Source of the DNA: a virus
Virus record (IMG/VR): IMGVR_UViG_3300047564_002270
Coordinates: 32,001 to 96,000 of that record
Reading direction: 5' to 3' (one strand)
Length of the DNA: 64,000 bases
The stretch's first letter is position 1. The number at the start of each line of letters is the position of its first letter. Both the position numbers and the translations under genes were made by a program. Of this stretch, positions 3,233-52,829 are shown piece after piece. Under the pieces are notes generated by a model. It was not told where the DNA came from and did not search any database. It saw only the letters and a program-made list of their open reading frames with translations.

Positions 3233-3304
3233 GGGCGATTAACTCAGCGGTAGAGTGCCTCCTTTACACGGAGATGGTCACTGGTTCGAATCCAGTATCG
3301 CCCA
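3233..3304 (+). tRNA. tRNA-Val(TAC)
   Basis: Cloverleaf, loop TT-TAC-AC. Confidence 0.95.
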
Positions 3305-3314
3305 TAAGAAATGA

Positions 3315-3352
3315 AAAAACCTCAGGAGCGGCCACCCCTGAGGTTTTATTTT
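3315..3352. terminator. bidirectional intrinsic terminator ending the first tRNA block
   Basis: AAAAAACCTCAGG-loop-CCTGAGGTTTTATTTT. Confidence 0.75.
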
Positions 3353-3437: not shown

Positions 3438-3445
3438 TATAAATA
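3438..3445 (+). promoter_or_regulatory. T4-type late promoter
   Basis: Exact TATAAATA; a divergent copy lies on the - strand at 3382-3389. Confidence 0.65.
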
Positions 3446-3745
3446 AAATCAAGAGGAGCAATCCTCAGAGTTAGAGACAGCAGACGTATTACTCAGTGAT
3501 TCCTTTTTTGGTTCACTCATTAATGCTTCATTGGGTCTCCTAGATTTTCTTAGGAAAGTCTAAATCACACACGTCACGTATCTCTAACAGGAGATATGTT
3601 CAATCCCGAAGAGAAGTATTCCCAGAGGACTCGGCCAAAGTTCTCTGAGGCAAGGATTCTTCTGGCAATATGTCAGGGAAGGATTGTGCATATCTCTCCA
3701 AAATTACTTATATACACTTTCTTTCCCTTACGGAGAATAAAAAAA

Positions 3746-4648
3746 ATGGCTGATGTAACCGCTTACATGGGTGTAGACCCAGCACTTGCAGATATTCGCA
3801 GAGAAGGTTCTGTAGAGCGTGGAGAAATCCGCTACGATGTTGCTACTCGTGCTGGCGACATTCGTAGAGAAACCGCAGAAGGTATTAGCGAAGTTCGTTA
3901 TGACGTTGCTACCCGCACTGCTGACAACCGTTATGCTAATGCAATCGGTCAAAGCGACATTCGTAAAGAGCAAGCAATCGGTTTTGGTGATACCAGATAC
4001 GCTATTGCTGAGCACTCAGAAGCAACCAACCGTGACGTTTTAACAAGTGGTTTCAATACCAATGTTAAAGTAGACGAAGCTGCTGACAAAATTCAGCAAA
4101 GAGCTGCTGACTTCTACATTGCTGGTCAAGCAAGAGATTTTGATAACTCCCGTGATCTTGCTGCTCTGAAGGCATTCACAGATATGTCTTCTCAAAAACT
4201 CAGCAGTGAGATCCTTCTTGCTACTGAGAAGGCTGCTACTGCTAATGCTCTTGCGTCTGAAAAAGTTGCTGCTGCTGTAGCACTTGAGTCAGCAAGATTA
4301 GGCACTGCTGTAGCACTGGGTCAGTCACAAATCAGCAAAGAAGTTGCTGAAAGTAAGTATGACCTCAGTAAGCAAATGGCTTATGAGAATGAGAAGACCC
4401 GTGACCTCATCAACGACCTCAAGAACTCTGACCTTAACCGTCAGCTCATTGAGCGTAATAGTGATATTAACTATTATCGCCAAGATTGCAATCGTTGGGA
4501 AGGTCTGTATGGCAATGGCCAGTTTGCTCAACTTGCTTCACAAATCAATGCTCTGCAGTCAAACTTAGCAGAAACTCGCCAGGGTCTCTATAACTTTGGA
4601 ACCATGGCTGGTGTAGGTCAATCCTCAAACCAAAATCAGGTTCGCTGA
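3746..4648 (+). CDS. hendecad-repeat coiled-coil protein, unknown function (300 aa)
   Basis: RBS CGGAGA before ATG 3746; seven 11-aa repeats x[DE][IVNT]R[RYK]; codon usage resembles highly expressed genes. Confidence 0.85.
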   Translation: MADVTAYMGVDPALADIRREGSVERGEIRYDVATRAGDIRRETAEGISEVRYDVATRTADNRYANAIGQSDIRKEQAIGFGDTRYAIAEHSEATNRDVLTSGFNTNVKVDEAADKIQQRAADFYIAGQARDFDNSRDLAALKAFTDMSSQKLSSEILLATEKAATANALASEKVAAAVALESARLGTAVALGQSQISKEVAESKYDLSKQMAYENEKTRDLINDLKNSDLNRQLIERNSDINYYRQDCNRWEGLYGNGQFAQLASQINALQSNLAETRQGLYNFGTMAGVGQSSNQNQVR

Positions 4649-4666
4649 TTATTCATAGTTAAACTT

Positions 4667-4692
4667 GGGAGGGAAATATTCCCTCCCTTATT
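4667..4692 (+). terminator. hairpin/attenuating terminator after the coiled-coil gene
   Basis: GGGAGGGAA-ATA-TTCCCTCCC-TTATT. Confidence 0.6.
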
Positions 4693-4707
4693 ACAGGAGA
4701 ATTAACT

Positions 4708-5313
4708 ATGTCTATGGATGATTATGATAGACAACTTATAGAGCTAAATGCTCTTCTTACTGCTGCCAGAAGTCACGGAACCCAAGAGCAGGTGGATTTT
4801 GCTTTGCAAAATATTCAAAAGGCCCTGGGAAATGAGACTCCAAACGGTGGAACAAACATTTCTAATATTACTGTAAATGTCGAAGATGATGATTGCGATG
4901 ATGTGTGCCCACCTGGTCCTCCTGGGCCACCTGGGCCTCCTGGTCCTCCAGGTGAACCAGGACCTCCCGGTCCTCCAGGTGAGCAGGGACCTCCTGGTCC
5001 TCAAGGACCGATAGGAATTTGCAGTTGTAAATGCTCCACACGCCTTGTAACTACCAATTACACGGCAACCTGTGATGATTACTATATTGGAGTTAAATCT
5101 GATGGTCCAGTGACGATTTCACTGCCAGAAGAATGTACCGATTGCTGCGAATTAATTATCAAAGCAGAAATGGGACCTCCTCTTGGAAATAGGAAAGTTA
5201 CTGTTCAGGCAACAGGTGCCAGTTATATTGATGGCACAGACAAATATGTTATAGAAGTCCCGTATCAATCTGTGAATATTATTTGTAGAGATGGAGATTG
5301 GCACATCATCTAA
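4708..5313 (+). CDS. collagen-like protein (about 11-12 G-X-Y triplets, GPP-rich, Cys-flanked) with C-terminal beta domain
   Basis: [36 protein letters not shown]; RBS AGGAG. Confidence 0.88.
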
Positions 5314-5322
5314 GGAGAAAAA

Positions 5323-5934
5323 ATGGCTTACTTAGCACAACCTACCTCAAAGACAGAATATGGTGTTGTGGGTGTTGGTAGTTTTATCAATGTTCTTGAT
5401 GGGTTTATTTCTTTAGAACAAGATGTATCACCTACTAGTGTTGTATCTTTTTCTCAGGTTAATGTTGGAAATAAAGATGTAGTTACTTCAGTAAATCCAG
5501 TTGCTGGAGATGGCATCTCAATTACCGATTTAGTTTCGATAGGAAACACAGTTGGATTTGCGGTTTCAAATATAGGTGTTCTATCTTTATCTGCCGGTTC
5601 TGGAATTTCAATTTCCAATACCACCGGAAATATTACAATCTCGGCATCTGGTGCAGACCTGATTGCTACGATTGGAGTTACTGGTGCTTATACTGCAACT
5701 GCAAGTGATGAATATATTGGCGTTTTCAGTGCCTCTGCAGTCACAATTACTCTTCCCATTGGAATTACTGGAAGAGTTTATACAATTAAAGATGAATATG
5801 GTCAGGGATCTGGAAAGATTACAATTAAACCTTCTGGAGCAGAAAAGGTTGATAATTCAAATACTTATGTAATATCGGTGCCGTATCAATCGGTATCGGT
5901 GGTATTTCGTGGCGGACAATGGAGAATTATTTAA
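5323..5934 (+). CDS. fibre-like structural protein, C-terminal domain paralogous to 4708..5313
   Basis: AG(D/S)GISI repeats; shared YTAT..D.YIGV....VTI.LP ... YVI.VPYQSV....R.G.W.II. Confidence 0.8.
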   Translation: MAYLAQPTSKTEYGVVGVGSFINVLDGFISLEQDVSPTSVVSFSQVNVGNKDVVTSVNPVAGDGISITDLVSIGNTVGFAVSNIGVLSLSAGSGISISNTTGNITISASGADLIATIGVTGAYTATASDEYIGVFSASAVTITLPIGITGRVYTIKDEYGQGSGKITIKPSGAEKVDNSNTYVISVPYQSVSVVFRGGQWRII

Positions 5935-6680
5935 ATCTAAACTTTAAAGTCAGAAAATCACCTTCGGAAGAAAGTGATCTAATCTATAAGAGCGATAATA
6001 CAAAATGTATTCAAGAAATCGCTGACCTAAGACAGTGGGATACTCTTGTAGAAAATCAGGGAACCTTAAGTGCTTGTAGTGGTTCTGCCATTACAAGTGC
6101 CTATGAACTGATGGTAAAGCAATTGTATCCAGAACAGTCTGTGGAATTAAGTGATTTGTTTGTTTATTACAATGCTCGCTTGAATGAAGGAACAGTCAAT
6201 CGGGATATTGGAATTTACGTTAAGACTGGTATGAGTGTTCTAAAAGAATATGGTGTTTGCTCTGAAGATCTATGGCCTTATGATTTAGAAATGTGGGATG
6301 ATAAACCTCCCAATATTGCTTATGATGATGCTGAAAAAAGAAAAATTTTACAGTATCAAAAAGTAACCAGCACATATTATCTCACTGAAGTGTTGAGTGA
6401 CAACAAACCAGTTGTTTTCGGTATGGAAATATATGATAGTTTTATGGAATTAGATAACCGTATTTCGACTGTGCCATTCCCTTCACGTAAGGAAAAAAGT
6501 CAAGGTGGACACGCAATGTGTATGGTTGGTTACGACCTAGAAAAAAGACTTTTTCTTGCGAAGAATAGTTTTGGAACCAATTGGGGAATGGAAGGGTATT
6601 GTTGGGTCCCTTTTGATTACCTTAAACAGGAAGGATACGATGCGTGGATATTTGATATTCCACCCCAAGTAGGAACCTAA
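5919..6680 (+). CDS. papain-family (C1A, xylellain-like) cysteine peptidase
   Basis: DLR..NQG...AC (catalytic Cys), GGHAMCMVGYD (His), KNSFGTNWGMEGY (Asn). Confidence 0.9.
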   Translation: MENYLNLNFKVRKSPSEESDLIYKSDNTKCIQEIADLRQWDTLVENQGTLSACSGSAITSAYELMVKQLYPEQSVELSDLFVYYNARLNEGTVNRDIGIYVKTGMSVLKEYGVCSEDLWPYDLEMWDDKPPNIAYDDAEKRKILQYQKVTSTYYLTEVLSDNKPVVFGMEIYDSFMELDNRISTVPFPSRKEKSQGGHAMCMVGYDLEKRLFLAKNSFGTNWGMEGYCWVPFDYLKQEGYDAWIFDIPPQVGT

Positions 6681-6681
6681 A

Positions 6682-6831
6682 ATGTACGACTATTACCGAC
6701 CCTATGACTACTACCGTCCGTATGGATATGGATATCATAGGTATTATGATTCTTGTTGTTATAGACCTTGGTATTATGGACCATATTCGTATAGTTCATA
6801 TCCTTTTTATCCTTACAGACCTTATTACTAA
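6682..6831 (+). CDS. 49-aa tyrosine-rich peptide (21 Tyr), not in ORF track
   Basis: MYDYYRPYDYYRPYGYGYHRYYDSCCYRPWYYGPYSYSSYPFYPYRPYY; AGGA RBS; abuts both neighbours. Confidence 0.75.
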   Translation: MYDYYRPYDYYRPYGYGYHRYYDSCCYRPWYYGPYSYSSYPFYPYRPYY

Positions 6832-6851
6832 CAATTTAAATGGAGGAAATT

Positions 6852-7121
6852 ATGTTCACCCCCTACTATCCCTATAATAGGAATTATTATCAACCTTATA
6901 TGCCATATAGGCCCTATAGTCCTTATAATGGTTATTATCCAATATCTTCTTATAACTACATGAGAAATCAAATAGCTCAGAACTATCAGAGCATTTATAA
7001 CAGTGGATATATGACTGATGTCATTCAAAGTTCTGATATTAATCAAGTTGGTGCTGGATGTACAGTACCAATTCCTGGAGAACCTCCAGTTCCCCCGATA
7101 GAACCAATTCCAGTTATTTGA
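6852..7121 (+). CDS. Tyr/Pro/Asn-rich small protein
   Basis: GGAGG RBS before ATG 6852; YYPYNRNYYQPYMPYRPY N-terminus, Pro-rich tail. Confidence 0.75.
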   Translation: MFTPYYPYNRNYYQPYMPYRPYSPYNGYYPISSYNYMRNQIAQNYQSIYNSGYMTDVIQSSDINQVGAGCTVPIPGEPPVPPIEPIPVI

Positions 7122-7134
7122 AAGGTGATCTATT

Positions 7135-7557
7135 ATGGGATTTGGTATAACGAATAAACAAATTGCAGTTCTTGAATCTAGATTTCAATTTTATGAAAAT
7201 CTATCAAAAGAAATGTTGTACAAGTTAGAAAAAGCAGTAGATAGGATTACCGAGAGTAATCATACTGTTGCTATTATTCTTGAACGGCATGAAAATAGAT
7301 TAGACAGTACCGCACAATCAACTGAGTTAATTATCAAAATGATTGATGAGGTGCGTAAATCTGTTGATAAAAAAATAAATTTAGTTGAAAAAAAGATTGA
7401 AGATGTTTCTAGAATAAAATGGATGATTGTTGGTGTTGGAATGGCATCGGCAATTCTAGCAACTTCAATTTCTACTTTGGCATCTGGATGGTGGACTCCA
7501 GGTGAATTGGGATACAAAATGCAACACAAGTACGTTCCAACAGAAAAATCAAAATAA
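7135..7557 (+). CDS. coiled-coil protein with C-terminal transmembrane helix
   Basis: Heptad-like N-terminus, hydrophobic WMIVGVGMASAILATSIS; resembles a conserved cyanophage hypothetical. Confidence 0.8.
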   Translation: MGFGITNKQIAVLESRFQFYENLSKEMLYKLEKAVDRITESNHTVAIILERHENRLDSTAQSTELIIKMIDEVRKSVDKKINLVEKKIEDVSRIKWMIVGVGMASAILATSISTLASGWWTPGELGYKMQHKYVPTEKSK

Positions 7558-7603
7558 CGTAGCACCATCAGTTGCTTGATATAAATAATAACAAAAAAGT
7601 ATA

Positions 7604-8038
7604 ATGGAAACACTGTACAAACTATTGAGTGATGCTCAGTCATCACTCTTTGTTCTTTTTCATAAGACCTGGGTATTTCATTGGAATGTAGTTGGCAAAG
7701 ATTTCACACAACTACATCAACTGTTTGGTGGTCAATACGAAGCAATGTTTAGTGAGATTGATAGACTTTCAGAACATATGAGATACTTGAATGTTAAACC
7801 TTTGAGTTCTCTTTCAAGAATGCTTGAAGTAACTCAAATTCAAGAAGCAGCAAGTTCTACAACAGCAGACAAAATGCTTTCAGAACTTCTGGAAAATAAT
7901 GAAAAGTTCTGTGAAATGTTAAAAGAAATTTCCGAAGAAGCAGAAGAGCAAAAGTCTTATGCCACTGCTAATCTGGTTCAAGATCTAATGGAGTCTCACG
8001 GTAAATTTATTTGGCAATTAAGAGCACACTCCCAATGA
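7604..8038 (+). CDS. dps: Dps-family ferritin-like protein
   Basis: HWNVVG..F..LH.LF..QY......ID.LSE motif; late promoter TATAAATA at 7580-7587. Confidence 0.92.
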   Translation: METLYKLLSDAQSSLFVLFHKTWVFHWNVVGKDFTQLHQLFGGQYEAMFSEIDRLSEHMRYLNVKPLSSLSRMLEVTQIQEAASSTTADKMLSELLENNEKFCEMLKEISEEAEEQKSYATANLVQDLMESHGKFIWQLRAHSQ

Positions 8039-8504: not shown

Positions 8505-8891
8505 ATGTTTGAAAATTTACCTCCAGTAACTCAAGGGTCGTTAGGTTTATCTTATGCTATTGCCTATCTGACTAAAAAAGGTTATAATGTCTCTGTTCCT
8601 TTAGTTGATAATCAAAGTTATGATTTGGTTTGTGAAGTTGATAGTGAATTAAAAAAAGTTCAAGTTAAGACCACAAGGTTCAAACAAAATTCTAATTACT
8701 GTATTCAACTAAAATCAGTTAGAGCAAATAGAACCGAAAACAATATACATAAATTTAATAATAAAGCATCAGATTATTTACTTGCTGTTACTGAAGTGGG
8801 TGATATTTATTTTATTCCTACCTCAGATATTGTGGCAAAAAACTCATTGTCTTTAGGACCAAAATATGAGTCCTATAAAGATAAATTATAA
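8505..8891 (+). CDS. PD-(D/E)XK homing-type endonuclease (I-Ssp6803I/PDDEXK_5-like)
   Basis: GYNVSVP....SYDLV.......KVQVKT motif; TATAAATA at 8476-8483. Confidence 0.85.
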   Translation: MFENLPPVTQGSLGLSYAIAYLTKKGYNVSVPLVDNQSYDLVCEVDSELKKVQVKTTRFKQNSNYCIQLKSVRANRTENNIHKFNNKASDYLLAVTEVGDIYFIPTSDIVAKNSLSLGPKYESYKDKL

Positions 8892-8978
8892 GGAAGGTCA
8901 ATCCGATTGGCGACGGAACCGCTCTTGAAAAGCGTTGAGGTGTTAAAGCCCTTGGGAGTTCGACTCTCCCACCTTCCG
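8892..8978 (+). tRNA. tRNA-Ser(TGA)
   Basis: Cloverleaf with long variable arm, loop CT-TGA-AA. Confidence 0.92.
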
Positions 8979-9937: not shown

Positions 9938-10011
9938 CGGGGTGTAGCGCAGTTTGGTAGCGCATCCGCTTTGGGAGCGGGAGGTCGTAGGTTCGAATCC
10001 TATCACCCCGA
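9938..10011 (+). tRNA. tRNA-Pro(TGG), second copy
   Basis: Cloverleaf CGGGGTG/CACCCCG, loop TT-TGG-GA. Confidence 0.95.
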
Positions 10012-10048
10012 TTGTCTTATGACATTTAGACATTATTGGCTTGAATTT

Positions 10049-10624
10049 ATGAGTGAACATAAAATTGCTAAATCTGCTGGACACTATGAGGAAGTTATTC
10101 CAGATGAGTTGATGGACTTGATTGTCAAGGAAGTAGAAAGTATTGATTATGAAGTTTTTTCAGAAGCCAGTATTGGAGATTCTGGAAGTTCTATTGTGGA
10201 AACTAAAACAAGAAATTCCAAGATCACTTGGTGGTATGAAGAACATTGGGTTTGTTCTATTTTTTCTCATTACTTTAATAAGGCAAATAGAGAGTTCTGG
10301 GAATATGATTTGACTTACTTGTCAGGTATTCAGGTGACGAGTTATGATGTTGGAGAGCATTATGGGTGGCACGCAGACTACGGAAATCCAGATGATTCAA
10401 ATCATACCCGTAAATTAAGTGCCACTTTACTTGTAAATGATCCTTCTGAATATGAAGGTGGAGATCTTGAATTTATTGATTATCATGGAAGAACTCTTGT
10501 TGCCCCTAGGGTGAAAGGAACTATGATTATCTTTGATTCTAGAATTCCTCATAGAGTAACTCCTGTAACTAAAGGAAAAAGAATTTCTTTAGTTTCTTGG
10601 ATGCTTGGTCCTAAACTTCGATAA
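10049..10624 (+). CDS. 2OG-Fe(II) oxygenase (prolyl-hydroxylase/PKHD-like)
   Basis: WHAD...RKLS...YEGGDL...HRVTPVTKGKRISLVSW. Confidence 0.9.
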   Translation: MSEHKIAKSAGHYEEVIPDELMDLIVKEVESIDYEVFSEASIGDSGSSIVETKTRNSKITWWYEEHWVCSIFSHYFNKANREFWEYDLTYLSGIQVTSYDVGEHYGWHADYGNPDDSNHTRKLSATLLVNDPSEYEGGDLEFIDYHGRTLVAPRVKGTMIIFDSRIPHRVTPVTKGKRISLVSWMLGPKLR

Positions 10625-17014: not shown

Positions 17015-18565
17015 ATGGAAAAATTTGCATTACTTGAAGTTGGGACTCCGCGTGGATTTCTTTCTAATTATACTACGGTATTAACTTCTTTTAGAAATTT
17101 AGTTAAGAATAAAAATATTGACCCAGAAAATATTTTTATTTCATCGAAAATGTTTTCTCTTTATGGTAATCCTGAGAATTGGTTTGATTCATCTAGGATA
17201 GTTGAAGATAATCCTGAAGAATTTATTTTATGGGATAGTGTAGATAACTTTGATCTATCTCTTTGGCCAACTACTACAGAGCTTGAACTTCAGGAATATA
17301 TTAAATATATTCCCTTTAACGATAGAATTCAACAGTTATTGACATTCGATAAAGTTGATTATTCAAATTGTCTTGGGATTCATTATAGGGGGACTGATAA
17401 TAGAAATGATTGTGGGCATACTGATTTTGTCTCTTTGGAAAAAACATTAAACTCTGCTTTAATTGAATTTAATGAAAACACATATGATTCTATTTTTATT
17501 GCTTCGGATGAACTTGGAGTTGTGGAGGAAGCTAAAGATTTCTTTTTAAAGGAATGTAATTTTAAAAACATACTTCACTTTAACCATATTAGAACAACAG
17601 GATATCAGGGGTTGCATTTTTCTGATTTTTCAGCAGACGAAAAAATAACTCTTGGTGATCAAGTTTTAGTAGACTCTACTACACTTTCAAAGTGTAAGAC
17701 TATAATTGGAAAAACTTCAAATATTGTAAATTATGCTAGGATTCTAAATCCAAATATTGAAATTTTATATCAAGATTTAGATAGCAATCGCTTACTCGGT
17801 AATTTGAATCAAACATTTAATCAAATTAGGATATCTGATATACAACCTTTTATTTTTAATTGGAAAAATCAATTTGAAAAAACTATTAAGACTGAAAAAT
17901 CTTTAAAAGAAATTTTTGGAGATGTGACTGTTATTAATAGTGATGAGGATAATACTAGAGAAGGTTGGATTGATTTAGGAGATAGTGCTTATTTTACCGA
18001 GCAGTTTACTAAAGCTTTGGAATTATTTAAAGACAATAAAAAAGTTTTAATGCATGTTCAAGGAGATACTGAGTATGATAATTATCTCGAATTGGTAAAT
18101 GATGCAAGAAAATATTATTCCATATATGAATGGGGTGTGTATGCTCCTGATATTACTAATGTTTGGTATACTTCAGAAAATGTGGATATTAATGGAATAG
18201 AATCCGAACATGAAAATATTAAAATGGTGGCGTGTACAGATGAAACTGTTTGGTTCATTCATAGGGATATTATAGAAGAATACTATGAAAGAAAACTTTT
18301 CGAAATCATGAATTCGGAAAAAATGAAAATGGGATGGGGTTGGGATTTGGTTATGAATTCTTTATCCTTTTTAAAGGGTAGACCTGTGATCCGGGATTAT
18401 AATCATCAAGTTCAACATAAGGAAGGAACAGATTATGATAAAGCATTTGCATCTCAAGAAATGACCAATCTTTGGTATAATCTTACCGATGACCTAAAAG
18501 AATGTATATCTTACATTAAGGGTGATCGAGAAAATTTAACAAAATATTTCAATAGCGATGGATAA
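17015..18565 (+). CDS. fucosyltransferase-like (NodZ/O-FucT type) domain fused to a second GT-like domain
   Basis: LGIHYRGTD, IFIASD, D...LSKC..IIGK.SN motifs. Confidence 0.75.
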   Translation: MEKFALLEVGTPRGFLSNYTTVLTSFRNLVKNKNIDPENIFISSKMFSLYGNPENWFDSSRIVEDNPEEFILWDSVDNFDLSLWPTTTELELQEYIKYIPFNDRIQQLLTFDKVDYSNCLGIHYRGTDNRNDCGHTDFVSLEKTLNSALIEFNENTYDSIFIASDELGVVEEAKDFFLKECNFKNILHFNHIRTTGYQGLHFSDFSADEKITLGDQVLVDSTTLSKCKTIIGKTSNIVNYARILNPNIEILYQDLDSNRLLGNLNQTFNQIRISDIQPFIFNWKNQFEKTIKTEKSLKEIFGDVTVINSDEDNTREGWIDLGDSAYFTEQFTKALELFKDNKKVLMHVQGDTEYDNYLELVNDARKYYSIYEWGVYAPDITNVWYTSENVDINGIESEHENIKMVACTDETVWFIHRDIIEEYYERKLFEIMNSEKMKMGWGWDLVMNSLSFLKGRPVIRDYNHQVQHKEGTDYDKAFASQEMTNLWYNLTDDLKECISYIKGDRENLTKYFNSDG

Positions 18566-19349
18566 AAATAAAGCAGTATTCAAATTAAATAATCTACCTT
18601 CGATATATTGGTTGAACTTAGATTCAGATACTCATCGTTGTCAATATATGGAAGGGCAATTTGATTATTGGGAAATCAAAAAGCATCATCGTATTTCTGG
18701 ATATGATGGAAGAGGTGATGATGTTTCTTCTTATTTGAAGGGGAGAATGCCTGATAATATGACTCAAAATGAGGTTGGATGTGTCTTGTCTCATTTAAAA
18801 GCAATTAAGCATTTTTATGAAGAAACTGACGATCCATATGTTCTTATTCTAGAAGATGATGTAAGTTTTGAACCTGTAAAATATTGGAGTTTTTCTTGGA
18901 CTGATTTTGTTGCAAATCTTCCTTATGATTGGGATTGTGTTCAATTAACAACTATATGTACTGGCGATATACATGTAAATCTTCATATCAGATTTATTAA
19001 TGATTTTTCTGCAGCCGCATATCTTATAACTAGGCATCACGCTGAAAAAATCGTTAAAAATCATATTAGGGGTGACAAATATAAACTTGATAACGGGGTA
19101 AAGCCTAGAGCAGTTTCTGAAGACCTTATTTTTGAATCTGGAAAAACCTATAGTGTTCCGATATTTTTGTATCGTTTGGATATGGGATCTGCCATTCACC
19201 CTGAGCATATTGAGATATTCCATAAAAATAGTCACGACGGTTTAATGAATTTTTGGAAAACTAGTGGATGTGATTTTAAAATATCTCAAATGATGACATA
19301 TGATCCTTATTTAAAGAGAATTACTCATCCTTCTGAAAAAACTTCTTGA
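18558..19349 (+). CDS. glycosyltransferase family 25
   Basis: IYWLNLD....R, EVGCVLSH, LILEDD, AAAYLIT. Confidence 0.88.
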   Translation: MDKNKAVFKLNNLPSIYWLNLDSDTHRCQYMEGQFDYWEIKKHHRISGYDGRGDDVSSYLKGRMPDNMTQNEVGCVLSHLKAIKHFYEETDDPYVLILEDDVSFEPVKYWSFSWTDFVANLPYDWDCVQLTTICTGDIHVNLHIRFINDFSAAAYLITRHHAEKIVKNHIRGDKYKLDNGVKPRAVSEDLIFESGKTYSVPIFLYRLDMGSAIHPEHIEIFHKNSHDGLMNFWKTSGCDFKISQMMTYDPYLKRITHPSEKTS

Positions 19350-31366: not shown

Positions 31367-33049
31367 ATGATAAAAGTATTATTCTTTGGTATAGAAACAA
31401 AAGATCATATGTGCGAATATGATTTTATCGTAAATGAATTACTTCCTAGTCAAGTTGAACGGGACGATTATTTTCTATCATTAGAAAATATTAAAAATAC
31501 TACTGAAAAATTTGATATTTTTGTATATTTCTGTAGAGAACCTCAAAATTATTCTTGGAGTTATATACCTACTTATAATGAAGTTTTAGAGGCTGTATTA
31601 AAAACAAATCCAGAAATTATAATACAATTATCTGATGAGTTTGTGAGTGAAGATTTGCAAGATCATAATAAATTAGCAAATTACTGTCAATTATTTTTAA
31701 GAAATTATCATCATAAAAATTATTTTTATACTGATAATACTGTGCATATTCCACTTGGTTATACGAATGAATGTAAAGTATTTCAAGAAAAGAAAGATTT
31801 AAATTGGTCTTTTTTGGGTGAGATTAAATCCGATAGATCCAAAATGATTACAAGTTTTTTAAACATTCCAAATCATTTTGTTGGTAGGTCTATGCCAAAA
31901 GATGAAATGTGTAAAATATATTCTAGATCAATTTTCGTTCCATGCGGCCGCGGTAATTCTTCTTTGGATTGTTTTAGACTTTATGAGGCATCTATGAATG
32001 GGGCTATTCCTGTTGTAGTTGGTTCTAAAAAAGAAATAGAAACTACATTTAAATATGAAAAAAATCCTCCTTGGATTTTTGCAACTTCTTGGGAGGATGC
32101 AGTTAAGACGTGTAAAGATTTATTGAATGATGAAGAAAAAATAATATCAATTAGAGCAGATATTTTATTATGGTGGCAAAATAGAATTAATGATATAAAA
32201 AAGATAGTTGAAAAATGTCTGATAGAAAATTCAGTAAATAAATTAAAAAACTTTCCGAAAATATATTGCGTAAGTTTGGAAGAAAATTCTCTTCGAAGGA
32301 ATATGTTATTAAGTGAATTTTCTAAATATGATATAGCAGAAATTAATTTTTTGTTATCTAAAAAATATCCAGATAATAATCATATAATAGAATCTGATTA
32401 TTTGGATGATGATATAGTTAATTTGAGAGGTGCTGACTGCACGGCGTCTCACATCAATATGTTAAATAAATGGATAGAAGATACTGATGATGACTATGCA
32501 TTCTTCTGTGAGGATGATTTAAGTTTAGAAACAGTTTCTTATTGGAATTTTACTTGGGACGAATTCTATAGTAAACTGCCAAAAGATTGGGAGTGTATTC
32601 AGTTATTCATTATAAGTGATCATTTTAAAGTTGAGTCTCTTGAAATAGCACCAAGAATGTGGAATTTTTGGGGAGCAACTGCTTATCTTATGAAAAAAGA
32701 TTATGCTAAAAAGATAGTTAATACTTATTATAAGAATAATAAATATGTTCTTAATCCCATAAACGAAACTCCAATACATTGTTATTGGAATCCTGATTGG
32801 ATGTTTCCTGATCAATCAATTGTAAGTGTTGAGTGCTGTTTATTTCATCATAAACTTCCAATTGTAGAAAATATTCTTTTTACTGGGATTGGAAAAGTAT
32901 ATAATTGTCCGATATTTATTGAAAATATTTCTATAGATTCTACTTTTGTTTCTGGGCATAAGTTTGGACATTTAGAATCTCATGAATCTATTTTGAATTC
33001 TTGGAGATTGCACAAACAAAATAAATTATCATTGCAGTTTATGGATTAA
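31367..33049 (+). CDS. fused glycosyltransferase (exostosin/GT47-like plus GT25-like)
   Basis: FVPCGRGN..DCFRLYEA...GAIPVV; second half IYCVSL...R, SH, FCEDD. Confidence 0.8.
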   Translation: MIKVLFFGIETKDHMCEYDFIVNELLPSQVERDDYFLSLENIKNTTEKFDIFVYFCREPQNYSWSYIPTYNEVLEAVLKTNPEIIIQLSDEFVSEDLQDHNKLANYCQLFLRNYHHKNYFYTDNTVHIPLGYTNECKVFQEKKDLNWSFLGEIKSDRSKMITSFLNIPNHFVGRSMPKDEMCKIYSRSIFVPCGRGNSSLDCFRLYEASMNGAIPVVVGSKKEIETTFKYEKNPPWIFATSWEDAVKTCKDLLNDEEKIISIRADILLWWQNRINDIKKIVEKCLIENSVNKLKNFPKIYCVSLEENSLRRNMLLSEFSKYDIAEINFLLSKKYPDNNHIIESDYLDDDIVNLRGADCTASHINMLNKWIEDTDDDYAFFCEDDLSLETVSYWNFTWDEFYSKLPKDWECIQLFIISDHFKVESLEIAPRMWNFWGATAYLMKKDYAKKIVNTYYKNNKYVLNPINETPIHCYWNPDWMFPDQSIVSVECCLFHHKLPIVENILFTGIGKVYNCPIFIENISIDSTFVSGHKFGHLESHESILNSWRLHKQNKLSLQFMD

Positions 33050-48581: not shown

Positions 48582-51500
48582 ATGCTTCCTTTATTACTTG
48601 GCGCAGGAAGAATGTTAGCAGCAGGAGCAGCAAGAGGTGCTGCTACAGGGGCAGCAAGAGGAGCAATTGTTGGAGGAATTAAAGAGACTGTAAAGAAAGG
48701 TATTGTTGATGGGGCAAAGAAAAAAGCGACCTCATTTATTAAGAAAAAAACTACCAAAGCTAATAAGAAAATATCTCCAGATAAATTAATACCAAAAGGA
48801 AGTAAGGGTAGTGGCACTGGAGCATTAGTTCGTCGTAAGTCATCTGCAATTGTTCGTCGTCCAACTTCTGCTCTTGTTAAACCCGTCGATAAAGAAACTG
48901 GGGTAGAAGAAAAGCAACAAAAAGAAGAACAAAAACCCTTTGATGGTGGAGATCTAATCAAGGAATTAATTGCAATCAAAGAAACTTTGATTAAAATTAA
49001 AGGAGTTTTTGGATCTAATTTAGCAAATACTTTAAGAAATCAAAGAAGTCAAAGAATTCTTAGAAGTAAAGAAAAGGCATCTAAGAGAGAGGCAGAATTA
49101 GAGAAAAAAGGTCCTGAGAAAAAAGGTAAGATATTAGAGGGTCCTAAAAAGAAACTAAGTTTCTTTGATATGATTTGGAATTATATTAGTAATGTTTTAT
49201 TAGGAAGTCTTGCAAATTTCTTATTTAATTATGTTCCTCAGATTATTAAAATGTTTGGGGAAATTGCTAAAGGTCTTGAAAATCCTTTACAGCAATTAAG
49301 ATTAGGAATAATTGCTCTCACAACTTTATTCCCGAAACAAATTAAGTTTCTTGCTAAACTGACAGGGATGATCATTGGTCCCCCTGCAAGATTGATAGGA
49401 AAACTTTTATTAAAAGCAGGAGGAGTCGCTAAGAACTTATTTAAGAAAGCAGGAACTCTTGTTTTTAATTTAATTAAGGGCCCTCTTACAAATTTAGTAA
49501 AGAGAATTGGTGGAGAAGCATTAGAGCAAGGTATAAAATCAACTGCTAAAGGTGCTGTTAAATTTGCAGGAAAAGCAGCAGCAAAAGCAGGTACTGCTAT
49601 AGGAACTAGTGCTAGATTTTTAAAACGATTTAGAGCATTTTCTAAAATGTTTAAAAGAGTTCCAGTTATTGGGGCTTTGATTGGCATTGGTATTGATATG
49701 GCAATGGGAGAGCCATTGGATCGTGCTATTATAGGTGCTGCCGGTGCTAGTTTAGGTTCAGCAATTGGTGGATTAATAGGACAAGGTGTTATTCCAATTC
49801 CTGGTCTTGGTGCTCTTGTTGGTGCTGGTATTGGTGGTGCTATTGGTGATTGGGGGGCAAAAGAAATTTATAAAAATTTGTCAGGAAGAACTGGTCCAGT
49901 TGATAAGGCAAACCCAATTCCCGTTGAACGTCGTTATGCTGCAGGTAGAGTTGGTGGTGGTTCTAGATCTATGCCAAGTAGGACTACCAATATACAAGCA
50001 AAACCTGCAGTAGCAACAACTAAAGTTTCTGCCGATGTTGAAAGTAAGGCAAAGGAAGATATTCTTAAGGATGAGAAAAGTTTAAACAGATTTAAATCTC
50101 TCTCATCAACTTTTGCAGGAACTCCATTTATTGGTCAGTTATTGAAGATGGGTATTGATATTGGAATGGGAGCACAAGTTCAAAAGACACAGACTGATGC
50201 TGCTGCTCAAGACCTTGGATTTACTATTGGTAAAGCATTAGAAGATGATGAGTTTTCAGTTCCTGGTTTAAACAAAAGAATTATTGGACCTTTATCTAAG
50301 AATTTAACTGAGTGGGCAAAGAAAAGAATATTTTATGAAGTAAAATCAAGAGAAGGATTGTTCCCATCAATCGAAAAATCAAAAGACCAGGCAGGTAAAG
50401 CAGGTGAGGGTGGACAGCAACCAGCAACTGATGGTGGAGGAGTTAATATACAGGGAGGAGATGCTGATTTTTGGACACTGGCAGCAGTAGTTTCTAGAGA
50501 GGATGGTGATCCACAAGGACAGGCAGACGTTGCGCAGTCAATTTATAATAGACTTGCATCCGGTGCTTATGGTGGAAAAACTATAAAAGATTTAATTACC
50601 AGAACCTGGCAGTATGAACCAACTTGGAGATATCCAGGTGGTGCAACTAAAGGAAGAGGTAATCCTAATCCAGAATGGTTTAATATAAAAGATTTAGCTA
50701 GCGCAGCTGCTGCGACAGGAACTTCAGAATTCCACGTTTCTCAAGCTGCTAAAGCTATTCTAGATGCAAACCTTCAAAAAAATTCAAAAGAATTTGTTCA
50801 AGGAAGAACTGATTTTACTGGATACGCTAAATCTGCTAGAAGAGGTCAAATCCAAAGAAAGAGTGGTGACAATTATTTTGGATGGGACTTTAATTATTCT
50901 GGTAATAAAATAGCATTAGTCCCCAATTTCAATGCATCTGCATCATCTTCTTCTGGAGGTGGTGGAGGAGGAAAAAATGAACCTAACGTAGCTCAAAAAG
51001 ACAAAAAAATATTCTTACATTGGACTGCTGGCGGATATAATGATAATCCTAGTGGATTTGGATATAATGCTGTTTTTGATGGTAGTGGAAAGAAACAACA
51101 AATTCGCCCATATAATCAGGCAGGAGAGCATACTTGGCGTAGAAATGCAAATTCTGTAGGACTAGCAGTTGCTGCTATGGGTGGAAAAACTGATCCTTGG
51201 AGTGTTCCTCCTAAAGCAAATCAAATTTCAGCAATGACTGCTGAAGCTGCTAAAATTGCTAAATCTTGGGGTTGGAAAGCATCTGATGTTAATTCCAAAA
51301 ATATTATGACTCACGCTGAGATTGCAAAGATAGATGGTTATGGACCTGGATCTGGTGATAAACAAATGAGGTGGGATTTCCTTCAAACGGAAAAAGGAAA
51401 ACCTGATTGGTCTGGAGGAAATGAACTTCGTAGTAAGATTAAATCTTCTATGGGAGGTGGATATGGTTTTAATCATCAGCATATTGTTCCATCTTTTGCT

Positions 51501-52829
51501 ATGGGTGGAAATCACGTAGTAACTTCATCAATGGGGATGAGAAATTTTGCTCTATCTCCCGGTATGCATATGGGAGTTGACATTGCGGGATCCACTGGAG
51601 AACCTTTGCAAGCATTTACTGATGGAACTGTTGAAGCAACCTCTCCACCATCACCTTCTGCTGGTTATGGAAATTGGGTAAGTTGGATTGATAGCAATGG
51701 TATTGGGCATCTCTATGGGCATATGAACAAGCCTCCTTTTGTAAGAGCGGGTCAAAAGGTAAAGAAAGGAACTGTTCTTGGAGAACTTGGAAGCACTGGA
51801 AAATCTTCAGGACCTCACTTACATTGGGAAGCAGCAACAAATCCACAAGATACTGGAAGACCAAAGAGTTCAGTTCTTTCAAGATTTAATCCACTATCAA
51901 GATATAACAAAGAAGCTCCTTTTGGTGGAACTATTAAATCCGATGGTTCTGTTCCAGAAAGTTCAGGAACTTCATCCAACCACGATGCAGCACCTGGTTC
52001 AACTTCCCCAGGAACTTCGAGTTCAAATCAATTATCTTTCTCTGATAGTGCTCTGACTTCAGGAACAATCTATGGAGATCCTGCTAAGGGTGGTGGATCT
52101 GGAACTAGAGGTAAAATCGTAGAATACTTAACTGGAGATCCTAATAGTCCTAACATTGCAGGAAAAGCATATGATAGGGCAGGACACGGAACACCTGGCA
52201 ATTATCACGATCACGTTGCCTTTAATGATCGTCAGACTGCAATAGATGCTTATAAATTCTTTAAATCAAAAGGTGTAGATGTCACTGAATTTAAAGGATT
52301 TGGTAGTGTTGGTGGCCACGCAATAAATTCTTATCATTATTCCGGTTTAGCATTTGATATTCCAGGATATCAATGGGGTGGAAGTGGTCCTGTTGGTGAT
52401 AAAGATTATGCTGGGTCAAGAAAAGTTAGAGCACTTCTAAATGAATTTTTTGGAGGATCAATACCTGTTGGAAGTGGACCTCCTCCTTCAGATATTGCTC
52501 AAGGATCTCAACCAAATGCAGATGGATCGAATAATGGAGGATTACAGTTCTCTGAATCTGATTTAACTTCGGGAACAATCTATGGAGATCCATCAAAAGA
52601 ATTCTATAAAAAGGAGATGGCAAATATTGATCAACTCAAGCAAAAACCATCTTATGATCAGAGTGGGAAACAAAGTATAGTTATGTTGCCACCTATGCAG
52701 GCACAATCTGCACCAGGACAATCTGGTGGTGGTAGGGGTATTTCACCTATTTCTGGTGGGTTAAATAATAAAGAAGTTTCCGCGCTTTCTGTCCGTCAAA
52801 TTCTAGCATCAGCACTTTATAAAATTTAA
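48582..52829 (+). CDS. tape-measure-like virion protein with multiple peptidoglycan hydrolase domains
   Basis: GA-rich TM-like region; SleB-like (LAAVVSRE..VAQSIYNR..QYEP); amidase_2 (FLHWTAG..HTW.RN..THAE); M23 (HMGVD..YGHM..GPHLHWE). Confidence 0.85.
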   Translation: MLPLLLGAGRMLAAGAARGAATGAARGAIVGGIKETVKKGIVDGAKKKATSFIKKKTTKANKKISPDKLIPKGSKGSGTGALVRRKSSAIVRRPTSALVKPVDKETGVEEKQQKEEQKPFDGGDLIKELIAIKETLIKIKGVFGSNLANTLRNQRSQRILRSKEKASKREAELEKKGPEKKGKILEGPKKKLSFFDMIWNYISNVLLGSLANFLFNYVPQIIKMFGEIAKGLENPLQQLRLGIIALTTLFPKQIKFLAKLTGMIIGPPARLIGKLLLKAGGVAKNLFKKAGTLVFNLIKGPLTNLVKRIGGEALEQGIKSTAKGAVKFAGKAAAKAGTAIGTSARFLKRFRAFSKMFKRVPVIGALIGIGIDMAMGEPLDRAIIGAAGASLGSAIGGLIGQGVIPIPGLGALVGAGIGGAIGDWGAKEIYKNLSGRTGPVDKANPIPVERRYAAGRVGGGSRSMPSRTTNIQAKPAVATTKVSADVESKAKEDILKDEKSLNRFKSLSSTFAGTPFIGQLLKMGIDIGMGAQVQKTQTDAAAQDLGFTIGKALEDDEFSVPGLNKRIIGPLSKNLTEWAKKRIFYEVKSREGLFPSIEKSKDQAGKAGEGGQQPATDGGGVNIQGGDADFWTLAAVVSREDGDPQGQADVAQSIYNRLASGAYGGKTIKDLITRTWQYEPTWRYPGGATKGRGNPNPEWFNIKDLASAAAATGTSEFHVSQAAKAILDANLQKNSKEFVQGRTDFTGYAKSARRGQIQRKSGDNYFGWDFNYSGNKIALVPNFNASASSSSGGGGGGKNEPNVAQKDKKIFLHWTAGGYNDNPSGFGYNAVFDGSGKKQQIRPYNQAGEHTWRRNANSVGLAVAAMGGKTDPWSVPPKANQISAMTAEAAKIAKSWGWKASDVNSKNIMTHAEIAKIDGYGPGSGDKQMRWDFLQTEKGKPDWSGGNELRSKIKSSMGGGYGFNHQHIVPSFAMGGNHVVTSSMGMRNFALSPGMHMGVDIAGSTGEPLQAFTDGTVEATSPPSPSAGYGNWVSWIDSNGIGHLYGHMNKPPFVRAGQKVKKGTVLGELGSTGKSSGPHLHWEAATNPQDTGRPKSSVLSRFNPLSRYNKEAPFGGTIKSDGSVPESSGTSSNHDAAPGSTSPGTSSSNQLSFSDSALTSGTIYGDPAKGGGSGTRGKIVEYLTGDPNSPNIAGKAYDRAGHGTPGNYHDHVAFNDRQTAIDAYKFFKSKGVDVTEFKGFGSVGGHAINSYHYSGLAFDIPGYQWGGSGPVGDKDYAGSRKVRALLNEFFGGSIPVGSGPPPSDIAQGSQPNADGSNNGGLQFSESDLTSGTIYGDPSKEFYKKEMANIDQLKQKPSYDQSGKQSIVMLPPMQAQSAPGQSGGGRGISPISGGLNNKEVSALSVRQILASALYKI

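Follow-up and report, generated by a model that had tools for sequence, protein, structure and literature searches.

A cassette encoding a rod protein, collagen-like and fibre proteins and tyrosine-rich peptides in a T4-like cyanomyovirus: a possible set of accessory virion fibres

The capsid spike of phage Pa223, gp52 (PDB 9ny6), is a homotrimer anchored by its first 41 residues, in which an N-terminal attachment segment is followed by a triple β-helix and a C-terminal knob called TNF-like; its authors propose a role in aiding adsorption (bioRxiv 10.1101/2025.06.11.659172). As far as predicted structures allow a comparison, this spike is the closest solved architecture to O3, one of the products of the gene cassette O1–O6 analyzed here, which is encoded by the plus strand of a 64,000-nucleotide stretch of viral DNA (hereafter the window; bases 32001–96000 of IMG/VR record IMGVR_UViG_3300047564_002270, 159 kb, 76% complete). 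Since the window carries psbA and psbD, 23 tRNA genes and, from approximately 42 kb on, T4-type baseplate genes, the source virus is assigned from its gene content to the T4-like cyanomyoviruses. An earlier reading of the window, based on its letters and open reading frames (ORFs) and referred to below as the original prediction, had described the cassette as a kit for a self-assembling proteinaceous coat, cross-linked by dityrosine and disulfide bonds and matured or dissolved by a protease.

O3 resembles a shorter Pa223 gp52, with an N-terminal segment, β repeats and a knob. However, the two proteins are only 16% identical, the middle part of O3 is much shorter, and trimerization of O3 and its attachment to a capsid would be features assigned by analogy only. 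Furthermore, Pa223 lacks counterparts of the rod protein, the collagen, the protease and the Tyr-rich proteins. The closest fold family of the knob itself, as modelled, is that of the Gp10-like (XD) and tailspike C-terminal β-sandwich domains; T4 gp9 and gp10 and the XD domain of TSP4 share this fold, with no family match at the sequence level. In TSP4 and gp10 the domain is located near the N-terminus and provides the platform on which other parts dock within a large protein of the tailspike or baseplate, whereas in O2 and O3 it forms the C-terminal end of two small proteins.

Several other described systems resemble individual parts of the cassette. Collagen-like proteins are established virion components of phages and provide a precedent for O2; one of them, gp12 of phage SPP1, is reportedly a capsid binder, and others are tail fibres. 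O2 is like the collagen-like phage virion proteins in having a short G-X-Y stalk within a small phage protein, but unlike them in its Cys knots on both sides of the stalk, its N-terminal helix, its C-terminal knob and the pairing of its gene with a rod gene. In the exosporium and spore coat of Bacillus, a collagen stalk and a C-terminal knob are combined in BclA, and CotC and CotU are Tyr-rich proteins. This likeness (a collagen stalk with a knob, small Tyr-rich proteins) is architectural only: O2 gave no Pfam sequence match to BclA, neither BclA nor C1q was among the 50 best structural matches, a result compatible with a distant relation, O2 has no exosporium-targeting N-terminus, and the module occurs only in viruses. 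The rod protein O1 is analogous to the whiskers of T4, made of fibritin (wac), a late protein whose long α-helical fibre has at its C-terminus a short element that is conserved, although no sequence or profile match between O1 and fibritin was obtained in Pfam or PDB searches. Finally, the protease O4 has its nearest solved relative in PDB entry 3OIS, which we take to be xylellain, a bacterial C1A protease, and the V-CATH enzyme of baculoviruses provides a viral papain-family precedent. O4 differs from xylellain-type enzymes and from V-CATH in the absence of a signal peptide and of an inhibitory propeptide, in its location within a fibre operon and in its fusion, on one contig, to the rod protein. 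Compared with all these systems, two protein families, an unprecedented accessory set and an RNA leader are new here, while the cassette as a whole is of the kind of a phage fibre or decoration module.

The shared knob and the proposed accessory virion fibres

The reading that we prefer, and to which we give roughly an even chance, is that the cassette constitutes a self-contained, late-made accessory fibre set mounted on the virion (at the head, the neck or the periphery of the tail). It is favoured because the knob, the one component whose structural home can be recognized, has this home in virion fibres, spikes and the baseplate periphery, the operon would be expressed late, the products lack signal peptides and the module occurs only in viruses; the step from fibre-like proteins to mounting on the particle is one that we infer. 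Inspection of the translations revealed no N-terminal signal-like hydrophobic segment in any cassette protein, so the products would stay in the cytoplasm with the assembling virions until lysis.

The collagen protein O2 (4708–5313) consists, in this order, of a conserved N-terminal helix, a Cys knot, 11 G-X-Y triplets, a second Cys knot and the C-terminal knob, with 11 Cys residues in total. The number of triplets, and with it the length of the stalk, varies among eight aligned homologues. The Pfam Collagen domain (PF01391; residues 69–102) scored 31 bits against a cut-off of 27.2, and PHROG tail-fibre families match O2 through this collagen part; the stalk is thus a predicted triple helix, as expected of the Cys-flanked GPP collagen of the original prediction. 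Downstream, O3 (5323–5934) encodes a short, β-rich fibre or spike. Over its C-terminal 88 residues it shares 48% identity with the end of O2 (E 6e-21), in agreement with the C-terminal domain that the two proteins had been said to share.

AlphaFold2 (AF2) modelled the O3 knob (residues 113–203) with predicted local distance difference test (pLDDT) values of 82–92, and the middle of the protein at low confidence. Via an exhaustive structural search, the knob was matched to five phage virion proteins with Z scores of 11.0–11.9 and root-mean-square deviations (rmsd) of 1.6–2.4 Å over 83–91 residues, all at only 16–22% sequence identity. These include TSP4 of phage CBA120 (residues 79–175; Z 11.9, rmsd 1.8 Å over 89 residues), the C-terminal domain of the tailspike of Acinetobacter phage Solidus (Z 11.6), a baseplate protein of Klebsiella phage KP1 (Z 11.2) and the knob of the Pa223 capsid spike (residues 195–289; Z 11.0, rmsd 2.4 Å over 90 residues). 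PDB entry 6o38, titled only “chaperone-substrate complex” and presumably the tail fibre of phage Mu, was found at Z 8.9. T4 gp9 and gp10 were among the Foldseek matches, at least 350 viral proteins of BFVD, some of them labelled as Gp9/Gp10 baseplate, tail fibre, pectate-lyase tailspike or collagen repeat proteins, matched the knob at E≤0.001, and the knob rows in the ESM Atlas were nearly all viral. At the sequence level, a profile of O3 gave no meaningful match in PDB, and the knob matched PF25692 only weakly (E 0.052; 14.4 bits against a cut-off of 25). The C-terminal domain common to O2 and O3 is therefore, as modelled, the common phage fibre/spike β-sandwich knob of the Gp9/Gp10-like and Phage_depo_C-like type. 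The original prediction had named, as a finding that would speak against it, that the proteins are ordinary capsid or tail decorations; this is partly the case, the knob being one that recurs in hundreds of phage proteins of the fibre, spike and Gp9/Gp10 types.

In the proposed accessory fibres, O1 would assemble into an oligomeric rod, to which O2 would be attached by its N-terminal helix. In one lineage, at locus L076, this helix is joined straight to an O3-type protein, beside a Gp23-family gene, and the helix of O2 therefore behaves as a movable attachment unit. A tail shared by O1 and O6 (see below) would dock both proteins at one common site, either a knob or the virion. The knobs would bind a conserved ligand and not a fast-evolving receptor, since O3 is more than 80% identical across its homologues: 1060 of these were found, and among the 120 listed nearly all are 203 amino acids (aa) long and at least 81% identical. 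The protease would be a dispensable enzyme that travels as a passenger of the rod (as suggested by its fusion to O1 in one contig), and may trim module proteins or digest proteinaceous surface layers of the host, while the Tyr/Cys-rich mini-proteins may serve as sticky or cross-linkable caps. In a separate observation, four knob-bearing ORFs were located within the module of the 239-kb contig L113 (5000–10000), which suggests an expanded fibre set.

A number of findings weigh against placing these proteins on the virion. The fold match is confined to the knob, and a shared fold is no proof of a shared location. There is no cultured carrier among the phage records, and hence no virion proteome or micrograph of the module. 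Structural genes do not usually come with a dedicated LuxR/GerE-type regulator (14/34 loci) or a structured leader. The cassette is also remote from the blocks of virion genes; it occupies variable regions, and in many cases the adjacent genes are encoded on the other strand. No precedent was found among phage structural modules for proteins with 40–50% Tyr or for a papain-type protease, and the conservation of O3 is far above that usual for receptor-binding proteins. If the proteins do nevertheless form virion fibres, then abundant environmental T4-like phages, including psbA/psbD-bearing cyanophages, have an appendage unseen in cultured models, which bears on how such phages find and hold their hosts.

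The rod protein and the tyrosine-rich peptides

O1 (3746–4648) is a protein of 300 aa. Its residues 14–90 form seven tandem 11-residue repeats, with a stronger 22-residue super-repeat (self-identity rises from 28% at offset 11 to 42% at offset 22), and the best self-match of residues 96–280 is likewise at offset 11. The number of DIRRE-type 11-mers at the N-terminus differs among homologues. A hendecad coiled coil had been proposed for this protein. The 11-residue periodicity and the seven repeats agree with it; the strongest hydrophobic period of the repeat region is 2.75 rather than 3.67 (a period of 3.65 ranks second over residues 14–280), so that true hendecad packing is a candidate feature only. 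AF2, provided with a 40-sequence alignment, modelled residues 14–279 as one continuous helix of 266 residues (mean pLDDT 79.7), with values above 90 at residues 100–240 and below 50 in the disordered tail (residues 278–300). We infer that such a helix, if straight, would be about 40 nm long at 0.15 nm per residue.

In metagenomic sequence, O1 has more than 862 homologues. These form 101 clusters at 50% identity and define a family of rod proteins, in which the C-terminal third and the approximately 30-residue tail (...TRQGMVNFGTMAGVGQ.STSNNVR) are nearly invariant. No meaningful relatives were detected by sequence in Pfam or PDB, a feature search of the ESM Atlas with O1 returned only unnamed viral clusters, and O1 was absent from a set of one genome per species covering 185,579 bacterial and archaeal species.

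Two features bear on the amount of O1 that is produced. The GC content at third codon positions (GC3) is 0.34 in O1, compared to 0.16–0.21 in the large virion and sugar-metabolism genes of the window, and the codons that O1 prefers (GCT, CGT, GGT, ACC, ATC, AAC, GAC) end in C or T. The codon usage is thus distinct, as had been noted; it is compatible with the high expression then proposed and equally with a foreign origin. The second feature is the hairpin predicted downstream of O1, which is present at 4667–4687 as a 9-bp GC-rich stem with a 3-nt loop (4667–4675 pairs with 4679–4687), resembling a terminator or attenuator. It is placed alike in all nine loci examined, with a changed stem sequence; in eight related loci and in the distant locus L074 a hairpin followed by a T-run is found at this place. 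The hairpin of the window is followed by a weak T-run (TTATTA) only, which is why a scan for consensus terminators did not report it. The hairpin supports a role in attenuation, O1 being the major product. Taken together, the conserved hairpin and the distinct codon usage suggest that more O1 is produced than of the proteins encoded downstream.

A long repetitive helix would also suit an intracellular role, in which O1 filaments or Arg/Tyr-rich condensates organize the assembly or packaging of virions in late infection and the fibres act as assembly factors. This explanation, which we regard as improbable, would account for the dedicated regulation of the module and for the absence of signal peptides from all products (by inspection), and low-complexity sequence that combines Arg with Tyr is classically what forms the “stickers” in proteins that phase-separate. 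However, collagen or β-fibre proteins that bear knobs are not known from cytoskeletons or condensates, the structural relatives of the knob are all extracellular virion parts, and the Cys knots beside the collagen suggest an oxidizing, extracellular setting.

Downstream of the protease gene, two small Tyr-rich products had been predicted: a 49-aa peptide that is 43% Tyr and contains a CC pair, and a second, Tyr/Pro-rich peptide. Both ORFs, O5 (6682–6831) and O6 (6840–7121), are real genes on the evidence of their sequences, and the length, Tyr content and CC pair stated for O5 were confirmed. Across 14 homologues of O5, the Tyr-rich frame has accumulated 942, 755 and 1812 substitutions at codon positions 1, 2 and 3, respectively. 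This third-position excess argues that the Tyr-rich frame is the real O5 gene, and TAY-to-TAY changes explain the Ile/Thr swaps in the overlapping frame; the alternative Ile/Thr-rich frame was ruled out as a gene by this codon-position test. The conserved ATG of O5 is preceded by AGGAG, the homologues in the 14 loci contain 36–53% Tyr, and Cys residues are conserved in the homologues of O5 and O6. In related contigs, the available gene calls take the overlapping Ile/Thr-rich frame of 29–31 aa (L002, 10951–11046; L006, 10192–10281), so the Tyr-rich mini-genes are probably mis-annotated systematically by gene callers. They define a class of mini-proteins with 40–50% tyrosine that is read in the wrong frame by standard programs.

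O6, whose likely start is at 6852 behind GGAGG, has a Tyr/Pro/Arg-rich head, an O1-type tail and a Pro-rich end. In hhalign comparisons, residues 37–69 of O6 matched residues 266–298 of O1 (probability 91.7%, E 7.9e-7), and O6 can therefore be described as a Tyr/Arg-rich head on the tail of the rod. This defines a short tail motif common to two otherwise unrelated proteins. The head-plus-tail design is kept in divergent lineages (with a distant homologue in L075), whereas other Tyr/Cys-rich ORFs, e.g. O5, have no O1-type tail. In IMG/VR, O6 was found on cassette contigs only, and an ESM Atlas feature search with O6 gave nothing usable. The possibility that O5 and O6 are dedicated cytoplasmic protease inhibitors (staphostatin-like) was considered and dropped, as the Tyr-rich genes usually follow the collagen gene and not the protease gene; a Tyr-rich gene is also present in a complete genome devoid of a C1 peptidase.

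These features lead back to the original prediction, restated here as a matrix, cloak or aggregate outside or around virions, in which O1 rods are joined by trimeric O2/O3 connectors. Hardening by disulfide and dityrosine bonds would follow lysis in oxic water, and the protease, where present, would trim or dissolve the material. On the present analysis we consider this unlikely. It would explain an O1 apparently made in excess (hairpin, codon usage), the 11 Cys of O2 and the conserved Cys and 36–53% Tyr of the O5/O6 homologues; the common O1/O6 tail together with multivalent trimeric knobs would permit a network; and the module is self-contained, mobile between genomic sites and phage lineages, and provided with its own regulator, in an architecture like that of Bacillus BclA with the Tyr-rich CotC/CotU. 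Conversely, the knob has an ordinary phage fibre/spike fold, no oxidase or peroxidase that could form dityrosine was seen among the cassette genes read, the protease is dispensable, and self-assembly is itself a proposal. We know of no occlusion-like bodies in tailed phages. We keep this explanation alive because of the private regulator or leader, the variable-region site, the conservation of O3, the Tyr-rich mini-proteins and the protease. In a stronger and similarly doubtful form, the cassette would be a self-assembling biomaterial kit that builds a cross-linked fibrous cloak around virions or replaces ordinary decoration. Its parts would be, again tentatively, abundant O1 rods, collagen/β-fibre connectors and Tyr/Cys caps, with the regulator or RNA leader as the switch. 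Such a cloak would represent a type of structure outside the virion that is new for tailed phages. Collagen, a papain-type protease and Tyr-rich peptides in one set also merit interest as a possible self-assembling material of natural origin.

Linkage, distribution and the optional protease

A profile scan of IMG/VR identified 53 loci, of which 41 were distinct; the linkage of the genes was determined for those 34 distinct loci whose downstream sequence extends over 3.5 kb or more. A knob-bearing fibre gene is present beside the rod gene in 32 of these 34 loci, and 22 contain two or more knob ORFs. O3-type proteins are encoded in 20 loci, Tyr-rich small ORFs in 25 and a C1 protease within the flank in 17, while a LuxR/GerE-type regulator gene lies immediately upstream of the rod gene in 14 loci. 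Seven loci contain a small gene, “Up”, like that of the cyanophage group. The homologues thus do not occur singly, and the proposal that the genes travel together is upheld by a linkage that extends over more than 40 distinct loci and spans lineages with rod proteins of 30–40% identity.

In close relatives (56–77% identity), found on contigs from JGI, NCBI, ENA and Logan, the order O1-O2-[O3]-O4-O5-O6 is kept, and the cassettes occupy varied genomic neighbourhoods, often on the strand opposite to the flanking genes. The carriers include psbA-bearing cyanomyoviruses. The five divergent carriers that were checked are contigs of 190–400 kb without psbA (Gp23 was found in 3/5), which shows that the module is not confined to cyanophages. 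In tblastn searches with O1, O3, the knob and two divergent relatives against 50,697 phage records, no cassette-like match was obtained; the only matches were one of 25% coverage to the repeats in APSE-1 and, for the knob, a weak one (E 2e-3) in a Silvanigrella phage record that lacks annotation. Likewise, no published description of the gene set was found in full-text literature searches. The statement that no such system has been described in cyanophages accordingly stands with respect to the literature and cultured phages searched, but the module extends beyond the cyanophages.

The protease gene O4 (5919–6680) encodes an intact papain-family (C1) cysteine protease, as recognized from the sequence: Peptidase_C1 (PF00112) scored 49.9 bits against a cut-off of 20.7, and PHROG 16701 (peptidase) matched with E 4.7e-16. 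Residues 44–244 of O4 align with PDB 3OIS (E 4.5e-35), with the Gln, Cys, His and Asn in register (motifs NQG..SACSG, GGHAM and KNSFG), and 15 of 16 cassette homologues retain these catalytic residues. The match to the mature domain is preceded by a stretch of only about 35 residues, in which neither an I29 domain (Pfam) nor a signal-like segment (inspection) was detected; an inhibitory propeptide and a secretion signal are typical of C1A zymogens, and are not needed for membership in the family. In IMG/VR, O4 was found on cassette contigs only. Many O4 homologues end in a hydrophobic ...ILL stretch, which was considered as a docking motif and rejected as such, since it corresponds to the start of the overlapping Tyr-rich gene read out of frame.

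Three observations bear on the role of the enzyme. (i) A complete 400-kb genome contains the regulator, O1, O2, a Tyr-rich gene and O3, with no C1 peptidase anywhere, which makes the protease optional. (ii) In the lineage represented by L003 (10145–10732), L005 and L025, which was recovered in three independent assemblies, the loss of two segments, and with them of the catalytic Cys, has shortened the protein to 196 aa. (iii) On a single 3-kb contig, P0341, a C1 peptidase is fused in frame to a full O1-like protein (549 aa in total); this fusion, for which an assembly error is possible, keeps an internal ribosome-binding site and Met, and is followed by a hairpin and an O2-like collagen gene. 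Since the enzyme can be absent, and in one lineage is without its catalytic Cys, maturation or dissolution of the material by the protease, as included in the original prediction, cannot be the core mechanism. In the L003/L005/L025 lineage, O5 is retained and O6 is 26% identical to the window protein, compared to 42–53% elsewhere.

It was also considered whether the cassette is a module for attack on the host envelope or for lysis, in which the C1 protease, as the effector, would break down surface protein layers or cell-wall peptides during entry or lysis, and the fibres would serve only to target it. A C1 domain does form the N-terminal part of a 753-aa protein of Alicyclobacillus phage MMB025 that is annotated as an endolysin and also contains glycoside-hydrolase-like and peptidoglycan-binding domains; in addition, the protease-rod fusion in P0341 and the catalytic residues kept in 15/16 homologues are what such a role would predict. 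This explanation is nevertheless highly improbable: the complete 400-kb genome has the rod, the fibres and a Tyr-rich gene without any C1 peptidase, just 17/34 loci have the protease within the flank, and one lineage retains the cassette with the catalytic Cys deleted. The same three findings indicate that the protease cannot be the reason for the existence of the module.

Promoter, leader and genomic surroundings

The cassette is bracketed by the genes for tRNA-Val (3233–3304) and tRNA-Ser (8892–8978), and a bidirectional terminator (3316–3347) lies just after tRNA-Val. The baseplate genes begin near 42 kb, approximately 35 kb away, which agrees with the placement in the tRNA region, far from the virion genes, that had been pointed out. 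All seven ORFs of the original prediction (O1–O7) were recovered at their positions. So was the T4-type late promoter motif TATAAATA, read directly at 3438–3445 on the plus strand, 308 nt 5′ of the ATG of O1, together with the leader of about 300 nt; in eight related loci TATAAATA, or CATAAATA / ACTAAATA, is found at the equivalent aligned position.

The leader of the operon (3446–3745) is, over approximately 250–300 nt, better conserved than the coding regions in an alignment of nine sequences, with long invariant blocks that include GTATTACT, CATTAATGC and TGGCATTATGTCAGGGA. The RNAalifold consensus structure contains 60 pairs, 16 of them with compensatory changes, and in the final predicted stem CTTTC pairs with the GGAG of the Shine-Dalgarno sequence, sequestering the ribosome-binding site. 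No Rfam family matched the leader at E≤1. This conserved structured RNA leader may be a riboregulator of O1 translation. In other lineages, the upstream position is taken by the LuxR/GerE-type regulator gene. The “Up” gene (87–117 aa; 7217–7570 in L002, 7499–7762 in L006) precedes the leader in seven cyanophage-type loci and is absent from the window; it encodes a hydrophobic segment and a basic C-terminus, and gave no Pfam match.

At the other end of the operon, the original prediction had included a coiled-coil protein with a C-terminal transmembrane helix as the membrane anchor of the kit. The coiled coil and a C-terminal hydrophobic helix are indeed features of O7 (7135–7557), a DUF7201 protein (PF23831, 88.7 bits against a cut-off of 27; PHROG 451), but the gene adjoins the cassette without belonging to it. 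Only in part of the loci is it located behind O6, it is widespread in cultured cyanomyoviruses, and DNA matches to it were found in 78 cultured cyanophage records, all lacking the cassette. The candidate anchor was therefore rejected. On the minus strand of the region, the sole ORF longer than 100 aa (7260–7646) overlaps this gene, and the Pfam match of the latter argues for plus-strand coding.

Further genes were noted in the surroundings of the cassette. A Dps/ferritin-like gene (7604–8038; PF00210, 77.7 bits) has its own strong sigma-70-like promoter (7576–7605), and in L020 and L022 such a gene directly follows O6, without the DUF7201 gene. A prolyl-hydroxylase-type 2OG-Fe(II) oxygenase gene (9971–10624; PF13640, 62.8 bits) is located 3 kb downstream of the cassette, and two family-25 glycosyltransferase (GT25) genes at 18558–19349 and 31367–33049; a GT25 gene is also present near the module of L039. 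The oxygenase and GT25 are possible candidates for collagen-modifying enzymes; both kinds of genes are common in cyanomyoviruses generally.

Two endonuclease ORFs adjoin tRNA genes on either side: an HNH endonuclease ORF (2221–2730) extends into tRNA-Leu (2716–2798), and a PD-(D/E)XK endonuclease ORF (8505–8891) stops flush against tRNA-Ser (8892). HNH genes near the cassette were also observed in L002, L006 and L041. Finally, a 1415-aa ORF in the baseplate region (48582–52829) contains metallo-endopeptidase and endolysin-like segments (PHROG, E down to 2e-52), and probably encodes a virion-borne cell-wall hydrolase.

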